This document shows, piece after piece, positions 3-48,495 of a stretch of 64,000 bases of DNA (positions within the stretch are counted from its first letter, which is position 1; the number at the start of each line of letters is the position of its first letter). The position numbers were made by a program, and so were the translations under genes. The stretch comes from an uncultured Thermoanaerobaculia bacterium. GTDB taxonomy: Bacteria; Acidobacteriota; Thermoanaerobaculia; Thermoanaerobaculales; Sulfomarinibacteraceae. Location of the stretch: positions 96,627-160,626 of the forward strand of contig CAYTTB010000001.1 of assembly GCA_964440565.1 (NCBI GenBank), written 5' to 3'. The notes below the pieces were generated by a model. The model worked only from the letters and a program-made list of their open reading frames with translations, searched no databases and was not told where the DNA came from.

Positions 3-503
3 GCGCTGCTCGCCGCGGAGCTCGGCGGCAGGACCCACCTCGAGCCCCTGCTGGTCTGTCTCGCGGCGGGGTTCGCCGCCCGCAACCTGTTCCCGGCCGC
101 GGCCACGGGGTTCCTGGACGCCCTGGAGCGGGCGTCGCTGCCGCTGTACACGGTGTTCTTCGCGCTGGTGGGCGCGGGGCTGGACCTCGGGGTGCTGCGG
201 CGGGCGTGGGCGGCCGCCGGGGCGCTCGCCGGGGTGCGCGCGGCGCTCCTGTGGGCGGCGACCCGGCTCCCGGCCGCCTGGCTCGGGGGTCCCCCGGCGC
301 TGCGTCGGCTGGGATGGACGGGGTTCGTGGCCCAGGCGGGCCTGTCGCTGGGGCTGGCGGGCCGGGTGGCGGCGGAGTTCCCCGGCTTCGGTCGTCCTCT
401 CGCCGCGCTGGTGGTGGCGGCGGTGGTGATGAACCAGCTCCTCGGGCCGCCGCTGTGGCGGTGGGCCCTGGTCGCGAGCGGGGAGGCGCGCGCCGGCCGG
501 TGA
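3..503 (+). CDS. Cation:proton antiporter-like membrane protein, C-terminal part (5'-truncated by window edge)
   Basis: Frame open from position 3 to TGA 501-503. Hydrophobic helices with LEPLLVCLAAGF, QAGLSLGL and NQLLGPPL, typical of CPA2-like exchangers. Confidence 0.6.
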   Translation, partial: ALLAAELGGRTHLEPLLVCLAAGFAARNLFPAAATGFLDALERASLPLYTVFFALVGAGLDLGVLRRAWAAAGALAGVRAALLWAATRLPAAWLGGPPALRRLGWTGFVAQAGLSLGLAGRVAAEFPGFGRPLAALVVAAVVMNQLLGPPLWRWALVASGEARAGR

Positions 504-507
504 GGGG

Positions 508-1662
508 TCAGGGGCCGTGGCCGCCGAGCAGCGTGAGGGTGGGGAACGCCCCGTTGCACCCGGCGGCGTCGCCCGAGAAGCCGCTCCCCACCGCGTCCAC
601 GCTGCCCGCGAGGAGCCCGTCCGTGAGCGTGCCCCGCACCGTCCACTCCATGGTGCCCCCGAGGTCCGCGTAGTCGTTGCTGAACGTCACGCCCGCGGCG
701 AGCTCGTCGAGGGTGAGCGGGGGATCGAAGCTGGCGACCATGGCGAAGATCCACGTGCACTCCGAGGTGCCGGAGCCGTCCACCTTGTCCCAGTTGGTGT
801 AGGTGGCGTCGAGGGACGTCACCCCGCCGGAGAGGACGATGGCCCCGCCGGTGGCGTACCCCAGCGAGTCGTAGATCGCCAGGTAGTACGTGCCGTCGCC
901 GCCCGCCGTTCCCAGCCGCCACCACGCCTCGAGAGTCGTGGGGTCGCCGGAGCCGTCGTCGATCCTGGATCCCACCACCACCACCGCGCCCGAGGTCACC
1001 TCGACGTGGGCCGTGCCGTCCTGGAGCGTGGCGACGCCGAGGGCGGGCAGCGACCGGTACCAGGCGGCGTACGGTGGAAGGCTCACGGAGGTGGCGGCCA
1101 CCTCGGCCCCGCCGGCGGTGCGGACCGAGAGGGTGAAGGCGGCGGGGGTGGAGCCGACGTTCACCGCGAACAGGTTGGAGCGGAACCCGCCCCCCTGGGC
1201 GAGCCCCACGACGTCGGTGACGCCCCCGGGGGCGAGCGCGGCCGAGGTCGGGACGGCCTCGAACCCCTGCCCGTAGGTGCCCGAGGGGTCGGCGGTGTTC
1301 AGGATCCGGGAGGAGGCCACGAGCTCCCCGCCCGTGGCCACGATCCGGATCGCCCCGGCCCCGGAGGCGAGCCCGAACACGTTCTGGATCGCGTCGGGGA
1401 GCGCCACCGACTCGCCGGGCGGCACGGTGTAGCGGACCGGGGTGGCCCCCGAGTTGTCGGTGTCGCGAGGCAGCCAGTAGAGGTCGGCGTCCACGCTCCC
1501 GGTGCCCGGGTTGTACAGGTACAGGTCGGTGACCCAGAACGAGCCCCCCGCGCCCCCGCCGCGCGCCGCGGCGGGCACCACCAGCTCGGTGCCGGGGTTG
1601 AGGGCGAACGCGGCCGAGGCGACCGCCGCGACCAGCGACGATACCGTCAGGCGACGCATCAT
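508..1662 (-). CDS. Secreted hypothetical protein, paralog 1 (conserved two-repeat module plus two-Cys C-terminal domain)
   Basis: ATG at 1662 after AAGGAGG. Signal-peptide-like MMRRLTVSSLVAAVASAAFA, then VPAAARGGG..WVTDLYLYNPG, shared with the next two genes. Confidence 0.85.
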   Translation of the reverse strand: MMRRLTVSSLVAAVASAAFALNPGTELVVPAAARGGGAGGSFWVTDLYLYNPGTGSVDADLYWLPRDTDNSGATPVRYTVPPGESVALPDAIQNVFGLASGAGAIRIVATGGELVASSRILNTADPSGTYGQGFEAVPTSAALAPGGVTDVVGLAQGGGFRSNLFAVNVGSTPAAFTLSVRTAGGAEVAATSVSLPPYAAWYRSLPALGVATLQDGTAHVEVTSGAVVVVGSRIDDGSGDPTTLEAWWRLGTAGGDGTYYLAIYDSLGYATGGAIVLSGGVTSLDATYTNWDKVDGSGTSECTWIFAMVASFDPPLTLDELAAGVTFSNDYADLGGTMEWTVRGTLTDGLLAGSVDAVGSGFSGDAAGCNGAFPTLTLLGGHGP

Positions 1663-1717
1663 GGCACGACCTCCTTGCAGTGTCGGACGGAGGACCCGGG
1701 AGGGACGTTGACGCCGC

Positions 1718-2884
1718 TCACGGTGTCCCCGCGGTGCGCCCGAGCTCCACGGCGAGCCCGGCGTGGTCGCCGTCGAGGCACGGGTAGGGCGAGCCGGACC
1801 ACCCCTCGCCGTGAACCGAGAGCGTCCCGGTGAGGTGCTGCCGGGCCGTGGTCCAGCCGAGGCGCAGCGTCCAGGTGAGGGTCCCCAGGGAGGGGTCGGC
1901 GGCGCTCCAGTCCTCCACCCGCTCGTAGCCGGCGGCGAGGTCCTCCAGGGTGACCGGTGGCTCCACCGGTCCACCCCCTCCCGCCACCACGCAGCCGGGA
2001 TCGGTGGCCACCCACCAGACGGCCTCGGTGAGCCGGCCCTCCCCGTCGAGGCGGACCCAGATCCCGCCGGCGACGACGCCGTCGGCGTCGAAGGCGGTGC
2101 CGAAGTAGTCGCCCGCGAGGGGCGGCGGCGCCGGCCACCACGCCTCCATGGTGGTGGGATCGCCGGAGGCGGTGTCGATGGTGGAGGCCACCACGAGGGC
2201 CGCCCCCCGCTCCACCTCGGCGTGGAGCGTGGCGCGCCCGAACGACCCGGCTCCGAGGTCCGTGGCCTTGCGGTAGAACGCGGCCAGCGGCGGGAGCTCG
2301 TAGATACGGCTCGCGAGCACCGCGCCGGCGGGGTCGCGCAGCTCCAGCCGGAGCCGCGTGGTGGCGGCGGCGGTGTTCACCGCGAACAGGTTGGTGGTGA
2401 ACCCCGAGCCCTGCCGCAGCCCGGTGACGTCGGTGGCCTCGCCGGGGCCGAGGGCGGCGGCGACCGGGACCCCCTCGAACCCCTGCCCGAAGGTGCCCGA
2501 GCCCCCGCCGGTGTTGTAGATCCGGGAGGTGGCCACGAGCGGCCCGTCCGCCACGATCCGGATCGCCCCCGCGGCGGCGGGGCGGCCGAACGCCGACAGG
2601 ATCACGTCCTCGAGCGTCAGCGTCTCGCCCGCGGCGACCGTGCGCGTCACCGGATCCGCGCCGGTGTTGTCGGTCTCGCGTTCGAGCCAGAAGAGCCGGG
2701 CCGTGACCGCCGACGTGCCGGGGTTGTAGAGCACCAGGTCGGTGACCCAGGTCCGGGTGGCGCCCGGCCCGCGCGCCGCCGCCGGCACGAAGAGCTCCCG
2801 GGCCGGGCTCAGCGCCAGCGCGGTGGCGGCCGCGAGCCACGCCGCGGCCGCGAGCGCGGCGCGGGTCACGATCGTTCCGGCCAT
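1718..2884 (-). CDS. Secreted hypothetical protein, paralog 2
   Basis: MAGTIVTRAALAAAAWLAAATALA signal, then FVPAAARGPGATRTWVTDLVLYNPG. Colinear with paralogs 1 and 3. Confidence 0.85.
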   Translation of the reverse strand: MAGTIVTRAALAAAAWLAAATALALSPARELFVPAAARGPGATRTWVTDLVLYNPGTSAVTARLFWLERETDNTGADPVTRTVAAGETLTLEDVILSAFGRPAAAGAIRIVADGPLVATSRIYNTGGGSGTFGQGFEGVPVAAALGPGEATDVTGLRQGSGFTTNLFAVNTAAATTRLRLELRDPAGAVLASRIYELPPLAAFYRKATDLGAGSFGRATLHAEVERGAALVVASTIDTASGDPTTMEAWWPAPPPLAGDYFGTAFDADGVVAGGIWVRLDGEGRLTEAVWWVATDPGCVVAGGGGPVEPPVTLEDLAAGYERVEDWSAADPSLGTLTWTLRLGWTTARQHLTGTLSVHGEGWSGSPYPCLDGDHAGLAVELGRTAGTP

Positions 2885-2903
2885 GGGGCGCTCCGCGACC
2901 CGC

Positions 2904-4079
2904 TCACGACCCTGGCTGGAGCTTGCCGAGGAACGCCTGGTCGCCAGGGAACGTGATGTTGCAGACGGCGTCGGCACCGCTCCAGCCGCTTCCCACCGCC
3001 TCGACGGTGCCCTCGAGGTGGAGCCCGGGGCTCTTCACCGTGAGGGTCACGGTGAAGTCCACCGTGCCGTCGTCGTACTGGCCGTCCCCGTCGGTGTCGT
3101 AGTTGGCGGTGAGGGGGACCCCGGACGAGAAGTCGGCCAGCGGCACCGTGGGGTCGAACACCACCGAGACCGGGAAGAAGTACGAGCAGCTGGCGTCGGC
3201 GGAGGGGAAGTAGAAGTCGAGCTGCGAGACCTCGGCCGAGGCGTTCACCACCATCCGGATCCCTCCGAGGCCACCGGCCGTGTCCTGCACCACGCCGAAG
3301 TAGGTGCCCTCGTCCACCAGCCCGGCCCCGCCCAGGCTCCACCACGCGGCCATGGTGGTGGGGTCGCCGGAGGTGACGTCGATGGTGGAGCCCACCACGA
3401 TGGCGGAGCCCTGCGTCACGGTGGCATGTACCGTGCCGCGGTCGAAGGCGGGGCCGCCGAGATCGGTGATCTTCCGGTAGAAGGCGGCCAGCGGCGGCAG
3501 GGTGTAGCTGCGGCTGGCGAGGGTGGCGCCGCTCGGGTCGCGCAGCTCGAAGGTCACGGCCGCCTGGGTCGTCCCGGTGTTCACGGCGAACAGGTTGGTG
3601 GTGAAGCTCCCGTTCTGGGCGAGGCCCACGATGTCGGTGCTCCCGCCGGCGGAGATCGCCGCGCTCGCCGGGACCCCCTCGAACCCCTGCCCGAAGGTGC
3701 CCGAACCCCCGCCGGTGTTGTAGATCCGCGACGTCACCACCACCGTGGTACCGGCGATGACGCGGATCGCCCCCGCCGCCGAGGAGAGGCCGAACACGCT
3801 GGAGATCACGTCGTCCAGCGCCAGCGTCTCCCCGGGCGCCACCGTGAAGCTCACCGGTGCGGCGCCGGTGTTGTCCGTGTCGCGGGGCAGCCAGTAGAGG
3901 CTGATCGAGGCGCTGGTGGTACCCGGGTTGTACACGAACACGTCGGTCACCCAGGTGCCGGTGGCCCCCGGGCCGCGCGCCGCCGCCGGGACGAACACGT
4001 CGGTGCCGGGGTTGATGGCGAGCGCGGGGCTCGCGGCGAGGAGGAGCGCGATGCCGAGGATGCCGATCGTCTTCTTCAT
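2904..4079 (-). CDS. Secreted hypothetical protein, paralog 3
   Basis: MKKTIGILGIALLLAASPALA signal, then FVPAAARGPGATGTWVTDVFVYNPG. First gene of the array; TACACT -10-like at 4119-4124. Confidence 0.88.
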   Translation of the reverse strand: MKKTIGILGIALLLAASPALAINPGTDVFVPAAARGPGATGTWVTDVFVYNPGTTSASISLYWLPRDTDNTGAAPVSFTVAPGETLALDDVISSVFGLSSAAGAIRVIAGTTVVVTSRIYNTGGGSGTFGQGFEGVPASAAISAGGSTDIVGLAQNGSFTTNLFAVNTGTTQAAVTFELRDPSGATLASRSYTLPPLAAFYRKITDLGGPAFDRGTVHATVTQGSAIVVGSTIDVTSGDPTTMAAWWSLGGAGLVDEGTYFGVVQDTAGGLGGIRMVVNASAEVSQLDFYFPSADASCSYFFPVSVVFDPTVPLADFSSGVPLTANYDTDGDGQYDDGTVDFTVTLTVKSPGLHLEGTVEAVGSGWSGADAVCNITFPGDQAFLGKLQPGS

Positions 4080-4175
4080 GGGGTGCCGTCCTTCCGTCCC
4101 TCTCTGGGACACGATCTCAGTGTACCAGGTCCGGCGATCGAGACACCCGGGGTGGGCGGCGGGTGTGATCTGGGT

Positions 4176-4187
4176 TACGATCGGGCC
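4176..4187 (+). promoter_or_regulatory. Putative -10 element of a leaderless dnaX promoter
   Basis: TACGAT at 4176-4181, 6 nt spacer, GTG at 4188, no SD. Confidence 0.55.
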
Positions 4188-5762
4188 GTGACGTACCAGG
4201 TGCTCGCACGCTCGTGGCGGCCGCAGCGGTTCGAGGAGATCGTGGGCCAGGAGGTGGTGGTCCGCACGCTCCAGAACGCGATCGCGAGCGGCAACCTCGG
4301 CCACGCCTACCTGTTCTCGGGGCTCCGCGGCGTGGGCAAGACCACCGCGGCGCGGCTGCTCGCCAAGGCGGTGAACTGCGAGAGCGGGCCCACCCCGGAG
4401 CCGTGCGGGGCATGCGTGCCGTGCCGGGAGATCGCGGCAGGCTCGTCGCTGGACGTGGTGGAGCTGGACGGCGCCTCGAACCGGGGGATCGACGACGTGC
4501 GCGAGCTGCGCGAGCTGCTCCGCTACCGGCCCTCCCGCGACCGCTACCGGGTCATCATCGTGGACGAGGTGCACATGCTCACCCGGGAGGCGTTCAACGC
4601 CCTCCTCAAGAGCCTCGAGGAGCCGCCGCCGTACATCCTGTTCGTCTTCGCCACCACCGAGCCGCACAAGGTCCCCGCCACGATCCTCTCGCGCTGTCAG
4701 CAGCTCGAGTTCCGGCCGGTGCCGGCGGAGCTCATCGTGCGGCATCTCGTCGCCATCGCCGGGCGCGAGGGTTTCCGGCTCGATCCCGAGGCGGCGGCGA
4801 TGATCGCACGCGCCGCCGACGGCAGCGTGCGCGACGCGCTCTCCCTCACCGACCAGCTGCGCGCGTTCTCGGGCGACGACATCGGACCCGAGGCGGTGGC
4901 CGAGGTGCTGGGCGTCCCGCCGGCCGAGCGGGTGGTGACCCTCCTCGAGGCGGTGGTGGGGGGCGACGCCGCGGCGCTCGTGGCGGGGCTGCGCGAGGAG
5001 CTCTCCGCGGGCCACGACCCCGCGGTGCTGTACCGGGAGCTGGGCCGGGCGCTCAGGGCGGCGGCGCTCGCGGCGGTGGGAGCGGTGGAGCCGGAGGCGA
5101 CCGGGTTCCGGGAGGCGGCCCGGCGCCTCGCCCCGCGTCTCGACCCCGCCGGATGGACCCGTCTGCTCGGCCTGTGGCTGGACCACGAGCGGAGCGTTCG
5201 GGACGCGGTGGAGCGCGAGGTGGCGCTGGAGGTGGCGTGCCTCAGGCTCGTGCGCTGGCCGGCGGTGGCGCGGGTGGAGCGGCTGCTGGCGGAGGAAGGC
5301 GGGGGGGCGGATCCCGCCCTCTCGGGCGGCTCGCGCGGGACCGTGACGGGCGGTCCCCGCGGCGCGAGCCGGGCGGCCCCGCCCGCCGGAGAGGGTGCGG
5401 GGGGCGAGCTGCCCGCGAGCCCGCTGGGACGGGCGCTCTGGGAGGAGGGTCACCGGCGGCTCGGGGCGGCGGTGGAGGCGGCGGCGGTCTCGCATCGGGG
5501 GGAGGAGCTGGTGATCCGGCTGGAGGGCGGCAACGGCGTGCTGGGCCGCCTGGTGGAAGAGGGCCGCGGCGTCCTGGAGGCGGCGGCACGACGGCTGTGG
5601 CCGGAGGTGCGGGCCGTGCGGGTGGAGCGACCGGAGGCGCCGCCGCCGGCCGAGGCCGCGCCACCGAGCGAGGTCCTGGAGGATCCGGGGGTGGCGGTGG
5701 CGCTCGAGGTGTTCGGCGGGCGCCTGGCCGGGGTCCGCCCCGAGGGTGAGGGATGGACCTGA
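4188..5762 (+). CDS. dnaX: DNA polymerase III subunit gamma/tau
   Basis: [19 protein letters not shown], Walker [10 protein letters not shown], Zn-binding cysteines [26 protein letters not shown]. Confidence 0.97.
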
Positions 5763-6355
5763 GGCCGCCGGCGGTGCGCGAGCTGCTCGAGCGGTTGGAG
5801 CGGCTCCCCGGAGTGGGGCCGCGGTCGGCCAGGCGGCTGGTGGAGCACCTGCTCACCGCGCCCGCCGAGGAGGCGAGGGGGCTGGCCGCGGCGCTCGGGG
5901 CGGTCCGCGAGCGGGTGCGGCTGTGCTCCACCTGCTTCCTGCTCACCGAGGGGGATCCGTGCCCGGTGTGCTCCGACCCGGGCCGCGACCGGGGCACGAT
6001 CCTGGTGGTGGAGAGCCCCACCGCGGCGTGGGCGGTGGAGGCCACCGGCGAGTACCGGGGGCTCTACCACGCGCTCCTCGGGCACCTGTCCCCGCTCGAG
6101 GGGATCGGGCCCGACGACCTCACCGTCGAGGCGCTGCTGGAGCGGGTGCGTGCGGGCGGGGTGCGGGAGGTGATCCTGGCCACCGACCCCACGGTGGAGG
6201 GCGAGACCACCGCGCTCTACGTGGCTCGCCGGCTGGCCCCGCTGGGGGTGACGGTGAGCCGGCCGGCGGCGGGGATCCCGGTGGGCGGCGAGCTGGCGGC
6301 GGTGGACCAGGTGACCCTGGGGCAGGCCTTGCAGGCGAGGCGGCGGCTCGAGTAA
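5753..6355 (+). CDS. recR: Recombination mediator RecR
   Basis: [12 protein letters not shown] HhH, CSTC..CPVC zinc finger, [21 protein letters not shown]. Confidence 0.96.
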
Positions 6356-6409
6356 CCTTGCCCGTTGCCTGCCGTTATGCTACAACGGGCAGGCCGGGAG
6401 GTTCGTACG

Positions 6410-6898
6410 GTGGACGTCGGCTTGGTCATGTACGAGGAGGAGTTCGAGAGGATCCGGCAGATCCTCGACCGCCTGCGCGTGGACGCCCGCGCGAAGATCG
6501 TCTTCCTGATCGACAAGAACGGCCAGCAGATCGGCGGGGCGGGCGAGATCGACCAGGTGGACACGACCTCGCTGGCGTCGCTCACGGCGGGCAACGTGGC
6601 CGCCACCGACGGCCTGGCGAAGCTCATCGGGGAGAAGGAGTTCTCGATCCTCTTCCACGAGGGGAAGAAGGACAACATCCACATCTCCATCGTCGGCCAG
6701 CGCCTCATCCTGGTGGTGATCTTCGACGAGCGCTCCTCCCTCGGTCTCGTGCGCCTCAGGGTGCGCAAGGCCGCGGCCGAGATCGAGCGCGTGCTCGAGG
6801 ACATGACCGAGAAGGCGCGGCAGGTGGGCTCGGAGGAGGTCGTGTCCCCCTTCGCCGAGATCACCGACGAGGACATCGACGCCCTGTTCTCCGAATGA
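6410..6898 (+). CDS. mglB: Roadblock/LC7 GTPase-activating protein MglB
   Basis: [36 protein letters not shown] and [16 protein letters not shown] match myxobacterial MglB. GTG start after GGGAGG. Confidence 0.93.
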
Positions 6899-7479
6899 GC
6901 TTCATCAACTACGCCGCTCGCGAGATCAACGTCAAGATCGTCTACTACGGGCCCGGGCTCGGCGGAAAGACGACCAACCTCCAGTACATCTACGAGAAGT
7001 CCAGCCCGCAGCAGAAGGGGAAGCTGATCTCGCTCGCCACCGAGACCGACCGGACCCTGTTCTTCGACTTCCTCCCCCTCGACCTGGGCACGGTGCGCGG
7101 GTTCAAGACCCGTTTCCACCTGTACACGGTCCCCGGGCAGGTGTTCTACGACGCGAGCCGCAAGCTGATCCTCAAGGGGGTGGACGGGGTGGTGTTCGTG
7201 GCCGACTCGCAGGAGGCGCGGATGGACGCCAACGTCGAGTCGCTCCGGAACCTCGAGGTGAACCTGAAGGAGAACGGGTTCGACCTCAAGACCATCCCGT
7301 ACGTCCTCCAGTTCAACAAGCGCGACCTGCCCACGGCGGTGCCGGTGGACGAGATGTACCGCGTGCTCAACTACAAGGGCGAGCCCACCTTCGAGGCGGT
7401 GGCCATCCAGGGGATGGGGGTGTTCGAGACCCTCAAGGCGGTGGCCAAGCAGGTGCTGTACGAGCTGCGCCGGCGCTGA
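6895..7479 (+). CDS. mglA: Small Ras-like GTPase MglA
   Basis: [53 protein letters not shown] overlap with mglB. Confidence 0.96.
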
Positions 7480-7513
7480 GCATGGCGGCGCAGGGCGGCG
7501 CGGGGGGGCGGTG

Positions 7514-43748: not shown

Positions 43749-45182
43749 ATGAAGCGAGCCACAGTCTCTCTCGCCGCGGCCCTGGTCCTGCTGGCGGCGC
43801 CGTTCGTGGCGGCGCAGGTGGACACGGGCCTGGCCGACCTCAGCGTGTACGTCGCCCTTGGCGACAGCATCACCGCCGGCTACGCCTCGGGCGGGCTGGC
43901 GGAGTTCTACCAGCGCGGGTCGTACCCCGCGGTGTTCGCGGAGCGGGCGGGGATCGCCGACTTCGAGCAGCCCCTGGTCTCCGACCCCGGCATCCCGCCG
44001 GTGCTGAAGCTCTACTCCCTCCAGGGGCCGGTGATCGCCCCCTCCAGCGACACCCCGGGTCAGCCCATCAACGCGACGCTGCCGCGGCCGTACAACAACC
44101 TGGGCGTGCCGGGCGCGGACCTCTACGACCTCCTCAACACCACCGGCGACATCACCAACCTGCTCGCCGGCAACACCGACAACGTGATGCACGACCTGAT
44201 CCTGCGTGACGGGCAGCACACCGCGCTGGAGCAGGCGATCGGGCTCCACCCGACCTTCGTCACGATGTGGATCGGCAACAACGACGTGCTGGGGGCCGCG
44301 GTGTACGCCACGCCCATCGACGGCGTGACCATGACCCCGGTGGACGCCTTCGCCGCCATGTACCAGCAGGCGCTGGGGGCGCTGGCGCAGTACACCGGCG
44401 CGGACATCGTGGTGTTCACCATCCCCGACGTCACGGCGATCCCGTTCGTGACCACGGTGAAGCCGTACCTCGAGCTGCCCGACGGCACCCACGTGCCCAT
44501 CATCGGCTCGAACGGGCCGCTGCCCGAGGACGCCCTGGTCACCCTTCCCGCGGCCTCGCTGCTGGCGCAGGGGATCGGCGTCCCGGTGGAGCTCGGCGGC
44601 ACCGGGATCCCGCTGCCCGAGGACCTCTCCGTCACCGCGGAGGGGGTGCAGCCCGGGTTCGTGCTCCGGCCCGAGGAGGTGGCGGCGATCAACCAGCGGA
44701 TCGCGGACTTCAACCAGGTCATCGCCGACACCGCCGCCGCGGTGGGGGCGAAGGTGCTCGACATCAACGACATGTTCCGCCGTGTCCAGCAGGGGTTCTT
44801 CGTCTACGGCGGGTTCGAGCTCACCACCGACTTCCTCACCGGCGGGATCTTCTCCTACGACGGCGTGCATCCCCAGCACGTGGGGTACGCCCTCATCGCG
44901 TCGGAGCTGATCCGGCTGGTGAACCAGGAGTTCCGGGCCGACATCCCGCAGGTGAACCTGTTCGACATCCTGGTCCAGGGGCCGGGTGCGGGTGCGGCCG
45001 CCGCCGGCCTCACGCCCCGGGAGGCGGCCCGCGCCTTCGGGATGGAGGCGCTCGCCCAGCTCGAGCGGGCGTTCCCGCTGCTGGGGCCGGTCCCCGAGGC
45101 GCACCCGCCGGTGCGCCGCCCCGTGGCGCGGCCGGGCCAGACGGTGGTGGTGCCGCGTCTTGACGGGGGCGACCTGCGCTGA
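43749..45182 (+). CDS. Secreted SGNH/GDSL hydrolase
   Basis: ALGDSITAG (block I), NLGVPGA, WIGNNDVL (block III), DGVHP (block V). Confidence 0.9.
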   Translation: MKRATVSLAAALVLLAAPFVAAQVDTGLADLSVYVALGDSITAGYASGGLAEFYQRGSYPAVFAERAGIADFEQPLVSDPGIPPVLKLYSLQGPVIAPSSDTPGQPINATLPRPYNNLGVPGADLYDLLNTTGDITNLLAGNTDNVMHDLILRDGQHTALEQAIGLHPTFVTMWIGNNDVLGAAVYATPIDGVTMTPVDAFAAMYQQALGALAQYTGADIVVFTIPDVTAIPFVTTVKPYLELPDGTHVPIIGSNGPLPEDALVTLPAASLLAQGIGVPVELGGTGIPLPEDLSVTAEGVQPGFVLRPEEVAAINQRIADFNQVIADTAAAVGAKVLDINDMFRRVQQGFFVYGGFELTTDFLTGGIFSYDGVHPQHVGYALIASELIRLVNQEFRADIPQVNLFDILVQGPGAGAAAAGLTPREAARAFGMEALAQLERAFPLLGPVPEAHPPVRRPVARPGQTVVVPRLDGGDLR

Positions 45183-45276: not shown

Positions 45277-46959
45277 ATGCAGCGTACCCCTGGCATCGCC
45301 CTCGTCCTCGTCCTCGCGATCCCCGCCCTCGCCGCTGCCCAGGTGTGCACCCCGGCGCTCGAGGGCACCCTCGCCGTCTCGGGCGACCTCGGCGCTCCCG
45401 AGCTGCTCGGGACCAACGCCTACGTGCCGGCGGGGAGCGCCGGGCTGGCGTGGATCGACGCCCGCGACCCGGCCGCTCCGGTGCTGAAGGCGCTGGTGGC
45501 GACCCCGGGCTCCGCCGAGGACGTGGTGCTCGAGTACTTCCAGAAATACCTGGTCGTGGCGGACGGCGCCTCCGGGCTGGTGGTGCTCACGCTGGCGGGG
45601 GACGGCACCCCGACCGTGGTGCAGACGGGGAGCGTGGGCGGCACCGCGACGGCGGTCAGCGGCGCGGGGGGGCAGTGGGTCGTGGGCACGGCCGAGGGCC
45701 AGGTGCTGACGGTGGACGCGAGCCCGGGCGGCGCCCCGGCGGTGCGGGGGTCGGTCGCGGTGGGGGGAGAGGTGCACGCGATCGCCCTGGGCCCGTCGCG
45801 GGCGTACGTGGCCGCCGGCGCCGGCGGGCTGGTGGTGGTGAGCACCGCCGACCGCTCCGCGCCGGAGGTGGTGGGGAGCGCGTCGCTGGGCGGCGACGTG
45901 CTCGCGGTGATCAAGGACGGGTCGCGCCTCTACGCCGGGGTGGCCGGGGTCGGGATCGTGGCGCTGGAGCTCGAGGGCGACACGCCGGTGGTGCGCGCCA
46001 CCCTCGCGACGCCCGCGGACCCCACCGACCTGGTGGCATGGGCCGGACGGCTGTACGCGGCGATGCCGGGGCACGGCATCGTGGCCGTGGACAGCTCGCT
46101 GGGCGACGTCCTGCTCGAGCTGGGCACGCTGGCGCTGCCCGGAGCTCGCGGGATGGCGCTCGCCGGCGACGTGCTCGACGTGGGGCGCGGGGGCGAGGGG
46201 TTCGCGGCGGTGGACATCGGTCAGTGCGCCACGGCGGGCGCCAACCCGGTGACCCGGTACGTCCCGGCGGCGGCGCGGGCCACCGGGGCGGCGAACACCT
46301 ACTGGGTCACCGACCTGGCCATCGCCAACCTCACCGCGTCCCCCGCCACGTGCAACATCGCCTACCTCGTCAAGAACCGGGCGAACCCGGCGCCGGAGAA
46401 CCGCTCCTTCGTGCTCGGCCCGGGCGAGCAGCTGCTGCTCGCGGACGTGTTCGGGACCGCGTTCGGGCTGGAGGCCGCCAACGGCGCGCTCAGGATCGTG
46501 GTCTCGAACCAGGACGTGAAGGTCACCAGCCGGACCTACAACGCGGCGGGAGCCGAGGGCACGTACGGCCAGTTCATCCCGGCCCTGGAGATGGCCGACG
46601 CGGTGCAGCCGGGCCTCGCGGGGGCGCTGCCGCAGCTCGAGCAGGACGCCTCGTTCCGCACCAACATCGGCCTCCTGAACGTGACCTCGCTGGACGTCAC
46701 CGTCGACGTGGACCTGTACCGGGGCTCGGGCGAGCTTCTCGGGACCCACACGGTGGACCTCGGGCCGTACGAGATGGTCCAGGTGGACAGGATCTTCACC
46801 ACGGTGACGGGCGACCCGGTGGAGGGCGGCTACGCGGTGGTGCGGGTGAGGACGGCCGACGGCAAGGTGCTGGCCTACGCCTCGGTGGTGGACAACGGCT
46901 CCGGCGATCCCATCTACGTGCCGGCCCAGCTTCTCGCGCCGGGCACGCCGTTCTCATGA
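45277..46959 (+). CDS. Secreted LVIVD-like beta-propeller protein with the same two-repeat module at its C-terminus
   Basis: Signal peptide; blades GLAWIDARDP, GLVVLTL, GLVVVSTADR, GIVALEL, GIVAVDS, GFAAVDI; then YVPAAARATGAANTYWVTDLAIAN..GTYGQ..FRTNIGLLN..VVDNGSGDP. Confidence 0.85.
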   Translation: MQRTPGIALVLVLAIPALAAAQVCTPALEGTLAVSGDLGAPELLGTNAYVPAGSAGLAWIDARDPAAPVLKALVATPGSAEDVVLEYFQKYLVVADGASGLVVLTLAGDGTPTVVQTGSVGGTATAVSGAGGQWVVGTAEGQVLTVDASPGGAPAVRGSVAVGGEVHAIALGPSRAYVAAGAGGLVVVSTADRSAPEVVGSASLGGDVLAVIKDGSRLYAGVAGVGIVALELEGDTPVVRATLATPADPTDLVAWAGRLYAAMPGHGIVAVDSSLGDVLLELGTLALPGARGMALAGDVLDVGRGGEGFAAVDIGQCATAGANPVTRYVPAAARATGAANTYWVTDLAIANLTASPATCNIAYLVKNRANPAPENRSFVLGPGEQLLLADVFGTAFGLEAANGALRIVVSNQDVKVTSRTYNAAGAEGTYGQFIPALEMADAVQPGLAGALPQLEQDASFRTNIGLLNVTSLDVTVDVDLYRGSGELLGTHTVDLGPYEMVQVDRIFTTVTGDPVEGGYAVVRVRTADGKVLAYASVVDNGSGDPIYVPAQLLAPGTPFS

Positions 46960-47837
46960 GGGAGCGGATCGCGGAGTACCTCGCCCACCTCACCGTCGAG
47001 CGGCACCTCTCGCCGCGGACGGTGAGCGCGTACCGGCGCGACCTCGAGGCCTTCGCGGCCTGGCTCGAGCGGCGTCGCCTCGCCCCGGAGCGCGTGGACC
47101 GGGCCGCGGTGCGGCGCTACCTGGGCGAGCGGCGCGACGCCGGCCTCTCCGCGCGCTCCGCGGCCCGGGCGCTGTCGGCGCTGCGGGGGTTCTACCGGTT
47201 CCTGGTCGCCACCGGTGCCGCCGCGTCCGACCCGACGGAGAACGTGCCGAGCCCGGCGCTGTGGCGGACCGTGCCGCACACGCTCACCGCGGAGGAGGTG
47301 GAGGCGCTGCTCGAGGCTCCGGACACGGGCACGCCGCGTGGGATCCGCGACCGGGCGATGCTGGAGACGCTGTACGCCACCGGGCTCCGGGTCTCGGAGC
47401 TGCTCGCGCTCACGCTCGATCGTACCCGCCTCGACCCCGGGTTCGTGCGGGTGGTGGGCAAGGGGCGCAAGGAGCGGATCGTGCCGCTCGGGTCGTCCGC
47501 GATCGAGTGGATCGGACGGTACCTCGACGGGGTACGGCCCCGGCTCGATCGCGAGCGCCGGCCGGAGCTCTTTCTCAACATGCGCGGTCGCCCCATGACG
47601 CGGCAGGGGTTCTGGAAGAACCTGCGCGAGTACGGGGCCCGGGCCGGGATCCGGAGCCACCTGAGCCCGCACGTGCTGCGCCACTCCTTCGCCACCCACC
47701 TCGTGGAGCACGGGGCGGACCTCCGCGCGGTGCAGATGATGCTGGGCCACGCCGCCCTCACCACCACCGAGATCTACACCCACGTGGCTCGCGAGCGGCT
47801 CCGGCGCCTGTACGATGCGACGCACCCCCGCGCGTAG
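46956..47837 (+). CDS. xerD: Tyrosine recombinase XerD
   Basis: SPRTVSAYRRDL, RDRAMLETLYATGLRVSEL, GKG.KER, HVLRHSFATHL, LGHA..TT.IYTHV. Confidence 0.93.
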   Translation: MRERIAEYLAHLTVERHLSPRTVSAYRRDLEAFAAWLERRRLAPERVDRAAVRRYLGERRDAGLSARSAARALSALRGFYRFLVATGAAASDPTENVPSPALWRTVPHTLTAEEVEALLEAPDTGTPRGIRDRAMLETLYATGLRVSELLALTLDRTRLDPGFVRVVGKGRKERIVPLGSSAIEWIGRYLDGVRPRLDRERRPELFLNMRGRPMTRQGFWKNLREYGARAGIRSHLSPHVLRHSFATHLVEHGADLRAVQMMLGHAALTTTEIYTHVARERLRRLYDATHPRA

Positions 47838-48495
47838 GCTGCTCGCGCTCCTGCTGGCCGCCGCCGTCCCGGCTGCCGCGGGCCAGCTGGTGGTGTTCGT
47901 GGACGGGCGGGTCCTGCCGGTGGTGGAGGCGCGCCTCGAGGGGGGGCGGGTGGTGCTGGAGCTGCCCGGCGGGGGCACGATGGAGGTGCCCGCCCTGCGG
48001 GTGGACCGGGTGATCGCCGACGCCACCCCCGAGCCGGAGCCGCGCCCGCTCCCCGAGCCCGCGTGCGAGCCGTGGTGGGCGCCGGAGCCGCTCCCCGGGA
48101 GACTCCCTTTCCGGCGGGAGATCGAGCGGGCGGCGCGGCACGCCGGGATCCACCCCTGGCTGCTGGCGGCGGTGGTGGAGGCGGAGTCGGGGTTCGACCC
48201 CGGGGCGCGCTCCCCGGCGGGGGCCGCCGGCCTCGCCCAGCTGATGCCGTCCGCGGCGGCGGAGCACGGGGTCAGGGACGTGCGCGACCCGGCGGAGAAC
48301 CTCCGCGGCGGGGCCGAGCACCTGCGGGAGCTGCTCGACCGGTTCGGAGCGCTCCCGCTCGCGCTCGCGGCGTACAATGCGGGGGCCGCCACGGTGGAGC
48401 GCGCGGGCGGGGTGCCACCGTACCGCGAGACGCGGAGCTTCGTCCGCCGTGTGCTCGCGCGCTTCTGCCCGGGCGGCACGGGAGGGAGCCCATGA
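47815..48495 (+). CDS. SLT-family lytic transglycosylase
   Basis: Signal-like N-terminus, AVVEAESGFDP, GAAGLAQLMP, ALAAYNAG, PPYRETR.FV. Confidence 0.92.
   Translation: MRRTPARRLLALLLAAAVPAAAGQLVVFVDGRVLPVVEARLEGGRVVLELPGGGTMEVPALRVDRVIADATPEPEPRPLPEPACEPWWAPEPLPGRLPFRREIERAARHAGIHPWLLAAVVEAESGFDPGARSPAGAAGLAQLMPSAAAEHGVRDVRDPAENLRGGAEHLRELLDRFGALPLALAAYNAGAATVERAGGVPPYRETRSFVRRVLARFCPGGTGGSP

Follow-up and report, generated by a model that had tools for sequence, protein, structure and literature searches.

A stretch of 64,000 nucleotides from the genome of an uncultured Thermoanaerobaculia bacterium (contig CAYTTB010000001.1; hereafter the window) carries three neighbouring genes for secreted paralogs, A (508–1662), B (1718–2884) and C (2904–4079), which share a module of ~230 amino acids (aa) with a fourth gene, D (45277–46959). 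We propose that this module is an uncatalogued dyad of ASRAH-type domains that serves exported proteins of this lineage as a general accessory module and is most likely carbohydrate-binding, and we place the probability of this reading, taken as a whole, at roughly 0.55. An earlier note on the same DNA, made from the sequence alone, had seen in the array a diversified surface adhesin or receptor system and the best candidate for an undescribed system in the window. The array turned out to be of a different kind, a set of conserved, family-specific paralogs built on a dyad that can probably be traced to a known superfamily.

Duplication, fold and relatives of the module

The earlier note had suspected an internal duplication in the block shared by these proteins, and the suspicion was confirmed with the very motif pairings it had listed. 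When the two halves of the module were compared with hhalign, using an alignment of 28 diverse module copies from the source genome (alignment A3), they matched at a probability of 96.8% (E 2.5e-10 over 94 columns), WVTD..YNPG being aligned with FTTN..VNTG and SRIYN with STID..SGDP. A shallower alignment gave E 1.2e-5 for the two halves, and the control comparison of either half with the C-terminal domain of the array proteins gave E 0.3–0.5. In AlphaFold models, the strand order and one short helix are the same in both halves. The AlphaFold2 (AF2) model of full-length protein C comprises three beta domains (predicted local distance difference test, pLDDT, 88.8), and in the model of the module alone (pLDDT 93.4; predicted template modelling score, pTM, 0.90) the halves are packed into one rigid unit. 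The module of gene C extends over 3315–4016 on the minus strand (residues 22–255) and is modelled as two ASRAH-like beta-sandwiches packed as a single unit. Its first half (3663–4016, minus) contains the motifs VPAAARG..G..WVTD..YNPG and SRIYN…GTFGQ, and its second half (3327–3662, minus), with a strand order like that of the first in the AF2 model, the motifs FTTNLFAVNTG and GSTID..SGDPTT. The two halves share a fold by profile comparison and structure prediction alike, so the description of the block as two homologous beta-sandwiches holds; no confident full-length match to a functionally characterised family was obtained.

Scans of the four window proteins against Pfam and NCBIfam gave no significant match for the module, in keeping with the earlier note, which could not assign the block to a named family. 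Matches of the window proteins to LTD (E 0.013) and choice-of-anchor T (E 0.26) were discarded as noise. Searches of PDB sequences with the protein and with the module profile returned nothing, or CbpD at E 0.21. In Foldseek searches of the PDB, the best match of both the full-length and the module-only model was 1NC7, the TM1070 protein of Thermotoga maritima (probability 1.00). The match covers one module half (117–118 columns) with a TM-score of 0.77–0.78 on the target and 0.41 on the query, a root-mean-square deviation (rmsd) of 3.4 Å and a sequence identity of 16%. Matches that extended over two domains (POL lectin, XepA, arrestins, GH2 sandwich domains and vicilins) had rmsd values of 14–28 Å and were set aside as generic.

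The ASRAH superfamily, described by De Souza, Iyer and Aravind in 2009, has TM1070 as its reference structure (PMC2739507). The superfamily is characterised by an eight-stranded sandwich, is predicted to bind sugars and comprises the intracellular ASRT family and two secreted families, the latter occurring “always either as dyads or as tetrads” (PMC2739507). A cleft for a sugar or small molecule, lined by strand 2, is a prediction of the same paper, in which each ASRAH family has residues of its own at the cleft strand (PMC2739507). For profile comparison, an ASRT alignment was made of 4 sequences, from four genomes of the source phylum. It matched the whole module at E 6.5e-5 (hhalign probability 64%), the first half at E 1.6e-5 (79%) and the second half at E 2.8e-4 (41%), with E 0.45 for the C-terminal domain as a control. 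In the register of these alignments, the cleft-lining signature of ASRT, SHEshChhN, falls on W-R/V-T-D-L-x-L-x-N of the module, and ASRT N33 on the Asn of NPG. In ASRAH domains an Asn at the end of strand 2, ahead of a tight turn, is nearly invariant; in the module it is kept as N30 (NPG) in 24 of the 28 copies of the first half and as N146 (N-T/V-G) in 18 of the 28 copies of the second.

A further connection is provided by DUF5719 (PF18986), whose cut-off of 26.2 bits is passed by the close homologs P0012 (37 bits, E 2.8e-9), P0020 (31.6 bits) and P0029 (30.4 bits), and by one paralog from the source genome (C37, 28.8 bits). The matches of homologs to DUF5719 occur in two registers ~115 positions apart, which argues that DUF5719 is itself a repeat of the unit of which the module is made. 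The habit of the secreted ASRAH families is also encountered here: the module is a dyad, and two adjacent modules are found in six proteins of the source genome and in 119 of the top 150 matches worldwide. The DUF5719 matches, the fold match to 1NC7 and the profile similarity to ASRT converge, and we therefore consider it quite probable, on moderate evidence from predicted structure and profiles, that the module is a divergent ASRAH-type dyad outside every current Pfam family. DUF5719 probably belongs to the ASRAH superfamily as well, and probably corresponds to the actinobacterial cell-surface lipoprotein dyad that forms ASRAH family 3 of the 2009 paper. A literature search found no paper on DUF5719 and nothing on ASRAH beyond PMC2739507. 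The module is thus not undescribed in kind, as had been thought, since its fold and weak profile links lead to a superfamily published in 2009.

Distribution and proposed role of the dyad

The 3.46-Mb source genome contains 36 module copies in 29 reading frames, as found with a hidden Markov model (HMM) in all six frames; a second genome search found 32. Relatives from the same GTDB family and order carry 13–93 copies per genome (30 of 30 genomes), and in a phylum-wide sample the matches were strong inside the class and weak or absent outside it. Among 1.84 billion representative proteins, a profile search gave 14,815 matches at E ≤ 1e-3 and 5,290 at E ≤ 1e-30. The earlier note had recommended an HMM search of the genome and of Acidobacteriota and other metagenome-assembled genomes; with this many copies here and elsewhere, the module is a promiscuous accessory domain and not a scaffold private to the array.

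The module lies within ~12 residues of the stop codon in 15 of the 29 frames, and six frames have two copies. Among the top 150 of the 14,815 matches, it forms the C-terminal end in 92 and the N-terminal start in 42, and an adjacent tandem pair is present in 119. In the source genome the module is carried, among others, by two S8 subtilases, one of which has a P-domain, by a propeller of the BNR/sortilin type that also has PKD, by BACON, beta-helix/PKD and LVIVD proteins, by a multihaem cytochrome resembling MtrC/MtrF, in which PKD and Big_9 are present, and by a penicillin amidase in which it is N-terminal. The cytochrome (L028, contig C9:17372–20602) is a protein of ~1000 aa with Big_9, two PKD domains and a C-terminal dyad module; in the penicillin-amidase family protein (L035, contig C24:27697–31161) the module occupies residues 157–372. 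Partner domains were recognised in 46 of the top 150 matches and comprise PKD, LVIVD, FGE-sulfatase, other propellers, Kelch, fn3, CARDB, S8 and CBM96. Other proteins consist of a signal peptide and two modules only (e.g. P0071 and P0093). The surroundings of the 29 module loci were searched for a gene that might be a dedicated partner, and none recurs. The neighbours that do recur are histidine kinases, PD40/TolB-like proteins and ABC ATPases, and their recurrence is consistent with chance because these are abundant families. Histidine kinase genes tightly adjoin three small or medium-sized module genes (C4:45914–47305, C5:35428–37080 and C76:5374–6927), possibly also by chance.

In the model that we propose, the dyad, which is placed at one end of exported proteins of this lineage, either single or doubled to four domains, would be the intramolecular equivalent of the TM1070 dimer. 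It may bind carbohydrate, be it an envelope polymer (peptidoglycan, lipopolysaccharide or exopolysaccharide) or a substrate glycan, and such binding would lead to retention or targeting of the attached protein. For this functional part of the model, binding together with retention or targeting, we see a chance approaching even. Proteins A, B and C would then be stand-alone binders, to which the C-terminal domain would add a second activity or contact. Conservation is concentrated on polar residues (R, D, N, Q and S) of the strand that corresponds to the cleft strand of ASRAH domains, and this strand is the most conserved motif of the module. At the putative cleft strand and its neighbour, the dyads of A, B and C differ from the canonical form, with WVTD versus WRTD, AAAR versus AAH and FxxNLF versus FRTNxG, in agreement with the family-specific residues described for ASRAH at this strand (PMC2739507). 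That these dyads have residues of their own on the strand lining the TM1070 ligand cleft suggests that they have a ligand of their own. A bolder extension, which we regard as tentative and rather unlikely, is that the dyad or tetrad is a general, non-covalent envelope-attachment tag, apparently of Thermoanaerobaculia. If so, the dyad would play the role of SLH, CWB2 or the tails of the type IX secretion system (T9SS), and proteases, propellers and the MtrC-like extracellular cytochrome would be held on a specific cell-surface glycan. Proteins A, B and C, with their altered cleft strand, would then not be carriers of enzymes but would be dedicated to binding or organising the layer of this glycan.

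Several observations weigh against the proposal of a carbohydrate-binding ASRAH-type dyad. The link to ASRAH consists of a predicted structure and of sub-threshold profile scores (hhalign probabilities of 41–79%). The hallmark Trp that follows a polar residue at the start of strand 1 in ASRAH is not conserved at the aligned position of the module, and the invariant Trp of the module itself (27 of the 28 copies, following T or S) opens strand 2, not strand 1. Pfam ASRT (PF07100) gave no match to the window proteins at E ≤ 1, and the window copies remain below the DUF5719 cut-off, with no match for A, B and D and 20.2 bits for C. The most conserved residues could be structural and lie at the interface of the two halves rather than bind a ligand. 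A signal peptide alone accounts for export to the periplasm, not for surface display. Finally, sugar binding by any ASRAH domain is a prediction, apparently never tested in the literature.

The alternative that survives best, and that we consider unlikely, is that the module is a ligand-free structural unit, acting as a rigid spacer, as a stabiliser or by self-association, in which case A, B and C would assemble into an oligomer or a lattice of the envelope. ASRT/TM1070 is tetrameric, and homo- or hetero-tetramers have been proposed for the dyads (PMC2739507); the rigid packing of the halves (pTM 0.90) would suit a structural unit, and three co-oriented paralogs could co-assemble. However, polar conservation on the cleft-equivalent strand would be unusual for a mere spacer, and most genomes of the family seemingly have a single copy of the protein that combines the dyad with the C-terminal domain.

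Slightly less credible is a function in sorting or export, in which the module would be analogous to the C-terminal domain of T9SS substrates and read by dedicated machinery that transfers the cargo to the outer surface or attaches it there. Its place at the extreme C-terminus in 15 of the 29 frames and 92 of the top 150 matches, together with the great diversity of the cargo, is as expected of such a domain. The niche also appears to be open, in that tails of the T9SS type were not encountered: a search of the whole source genome for Por_Secre_tail (PF18962) gave no match, with a control that matched weakly in Bacteroides, and a PEP-CTERM search was uninformative, as no control matched. Against this, the module is N-terminal in A, B and C, in the penicillin amidase and in further proteins, it frequently occurs doubled or at an internal position, and at ~230 aa it is far above the size of known sorting tags. 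Nor is there a recurrent dedicated neighbour beside the generic kinases, PD40 proteins and ABC ATPases, and there are proteins made of a signal peptide and two modules alone (P0071 and P0093).

It is less likely again, and in our view improbable, that the resemblance to TM1070/ASRT is convergent and that the module represents an independent, unclassified family of beta-sandwiches. The low identity to 1NC7, the hhalign probabilities below 80%, the absence of the hallmark Trp at the aligned position and the many other beta-sandwich proteins among the weak matches are all compatible with convergence. However, 1NC7 alone combines a good TM-score with a good rmsd in both Foldseek searches, and the hhalign register agrees with the signature strand and the terminal Asn while the control domain stays at E 0.45. 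Independent matches to DUF5719 fall in two registers, and the habit of forming dyads and tetrads is that of the published superfamily.

Besides its similarities to the known members of ASRAH, the module shows differences from them. With ASRT/TM1070 it shares a unit of ~110–118 aa forming an eight-stranded beta-sandwich (here in a predicted model), the Asn at the end of strand 2 and a weak but register-consistent profile similarity. ASRT and TM1070, however, are single-domain cytoplasmic tetramers with SHEshChhN, whereas the module is fused in pairs, is exported and has WRTDLxLxNPG and FRTNxGxVN without the strand-1 Trp. DUF5719 resembles it in the repeated ~115-aa unit, in its occurrence on exported proteins and in being matched above the cut-off by homologs of A, B and C and by one paralog; it differs in phylum and flanking extensions, and the window copies score below its cut-off. 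ASRAH family 3, the actinobacterial surface lipoprotein, has a lipobox Cys and genes for WhiB, a glycosyltransferase and an inactive zincin as neighbours, whereas A, B and C have AxA sites without a lipobox Cys and are flanked by dnaX-recR and a Na/H exchanger gene. ASRAH family 2 consists of secreted N-acetylmuramoyl-L-alanine amidases of Chloroflexi with four ASRAH domains (PMC2739507). This is reminiscent of the module in that even-numbered sets are attached to secreted enzymes, with an envelope glycan as the presumed ligand, but the partners here are many and varied (S8, multihaem cytochrome, LVIVD, PKD, BNR and FGE-sulfatase, among others) and no amidase fusion was seen among the module proteins examined. 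To SLH, CBMs and the PPC domains of secreted proteases the module bears a functional analogy only: these are likewise terminal on diverse exoproteins and occur in multiples, and CBM and PPC are beta-rich, but there is no sequence relationship or specific fold relationship.

On this reading the module adds to a published domain superfamily a new branch that is very large and had not been catalogued, and A, B and C are copies of a family-specific protein built on it. It ranks among the most heavily used extracellular domains of the lineage, yet it is missed by current Pfam and NCBIfam models. Recognition of the ASRAH dyad would allow a testable annotation as envelope- or glycan-binding for thousands of “hypothetical” exoproteins, and would point to how uncultured Acidobacteriota may retain their secreted proteases and their electron-transfer cytochromes at the cell. 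The consequence for the array itself is modest, since it consists of conserved paralogs of a family-specific secreted protein and not of a new multi-component system.

The array and the history of its genes

The three genes of the array are co-oriented on the minus strand and separated by gaps of 55 and 19 nt. Gene A encodes a protein of 384 aa with a signal peptide, an ASRAH-like dyad module and a C-terminal domain; its paralog gene B (388 aa) has the same architecture, as does gene C (391 aa), the organisation of which is also apparent from the AF2 model. Shine-Dalgarno-like motifs at a distance of 8–10 nt precede all three starts, with AAGGAGG 8 nt before the ATG of gene A, GGAG 8 nt before the ATG of gene B and GGAAGGA upstream of the start of gene C. 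A promoter and terminator scan of 300–4400 found no sites, as expected at the G+C content of the window (74.5%). The signal peptides, read by eye from the translations, are encoded at 1600–1662 in gene A (…ASAAFA/L), 2810–2884 in gene B (…AAATALA/L) and 4017–4079 in gene C (MKKTIGILGIALLLAASPALA/I), all on the minus strand; in the AF2 model of protein C, this region is an N-terminal helix of low pLDDT. By eye, all three are of Sec type, in which a basic n-region is followed by a hydrophobic core and by an AxA site (AFA/L, ALA/L and ALA/I). The translations contain no lipobox Cys, and no Cys at the mature N-termini.

The modules of genes A (895–1599, minus) and B (2111–2809, minus), defined by alignment, score 324 and 335 bits with the HMM. 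The C-terminal domains are encoded at 511–903 in gene A, 1721–2119 in gene B and 2907–3317 in gene C (all minus). Overall identity among the three proteins is 47–51%, and it declines along the chain from 62–67% in the first half of the block to 50–62% in the second half and 28–38% in the C-terminal domain. Reading frames, translations and this gradient of identity together bear out the original description of three co-oriented secreted paralogs with a shared block and a divergent C-terminus.

The C-terminal parts of A, B and C (~135 aa) are nevertheless homologous to one another and form one kind of domain, in which a pair of Cys residues is nearly invariant, as judged from alignments; in protein C, where the AF2 model is of beta type, these are C298 and C373. 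The Cys pair fits an oxidising, extracytoplasmic location, and the domain is probably disulfide-bonded. It had no significant match in the PDB or Pfam. When its profile was compared with PDB sequences, many weak matches (E 0.01–0.1) to the CH1 domain of antibody heavy chains were obtained; these are not significant and are no evidence in themselves, but they may hint at a disulfide-bonded Ig-like sandwich. The domain is always paired with the module, in frames of roughly 390–490 aa (one match is in a longer stop-to-stop frame). Each of the 19 genomes of the same GTDB family contains 1–4 copies of it, and the 12 genomes of the sister family contain none.

In a maximum-likelihood tree, A, B and C fall in separate clades. 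Strong support joins gene A to P0003–P0008 and gene C to P0001, and the position of gene B, near P0013, P0023, P0026 and P0029, is weakly supported. Two relatives have a two-copy array at the same position, with dnaX-recR in divergent orientation; in one of these relatives, as in the window, the gene for a Na/H exchanger is convergent with the array. Separate clades and a locus common to two relatives mark the three genes as long-standing paralogs passed on by vertical inheritance, and not as a diversifying cassette. The tips, supposed to vary on a constant scaffold, are one homologous if faster-evolving domain with a conserved Cys pair, and the picture of a diversified or diversifying system is at odds with the age of the clades, the clear counterparts of A and C elsewhere and the shared locus. 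A diversified surface adhesin or receptor with a constant two-sandwich scaffold and variable tips is therefore the least probable of the explanations considered, for although the C-terminal domain diverges faster (28–38%) than the module (50–67%) and copy number differs among genomes from 1 to 4, the tips keep their invariant Cys pair, the paralogs are old, with clear counterparts elsewhere at least for A and C and the same locus in two relatives, neither diversification machinery nor repeats or mobile elements were noticed in the vicinity, and most modules are carried by enzymes.

P0001, the closest public homolog of gene C (86% identity), is labelled “Nitrospirae bacterium”, and all other named relatives are labelled Acidobacteria or Thermoanaerobaculia, which suggests a lineage of Thermoanaerobaculia-like Acidobacteriota; the Nitrospirae label is probably an error of binning or taxonomy. 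Beside the array, at 4190–7480, the translations indicate dnaX directly followed by recR, with no ybaB/ebfC visible in this interval, then a roadblock/MglB-like gene and a gene for an MglA-type GTPase. The order dnaX-recR-Robl_LC7 is also found in a relative.

The fourth copy and its surroundings

The claim of a fourth copy of the block within 45277–46959 proved correct. Gene D, on the plus strand, encodes a protein of 560 aa with a signal peptide, an LVIVD beta-propeller (PF08309; 26.3 bits against a cut-off of 20.2, E 4.5e-6) and a C-terminal module at 46240–46947 (plus), which ends 4 residues before the end of the protein. In proteins elsewhere, too, LVIVD frequently accompanies the module. 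This copy has the canonical form VPAAAR..G..WVTDL…FRTN…SVVDNGSGDP and is 25–41% identical to the modules of A, B and C.

Directly upstream of gene D, an open reading frame on the plus strand (43749–45182) encodes a secreted protein of 477 aa in which an N-terminal signal peptide and a GDSITAG motif typical of SGNH/GDSL hydrolases was recognised by eye. Gene D is followed at 46980–48495, with no sign of a functional link, by genes whose translations indicate a recombinase resembling XerD and a protein in which a motif like that of lytic transglycosylases is present.

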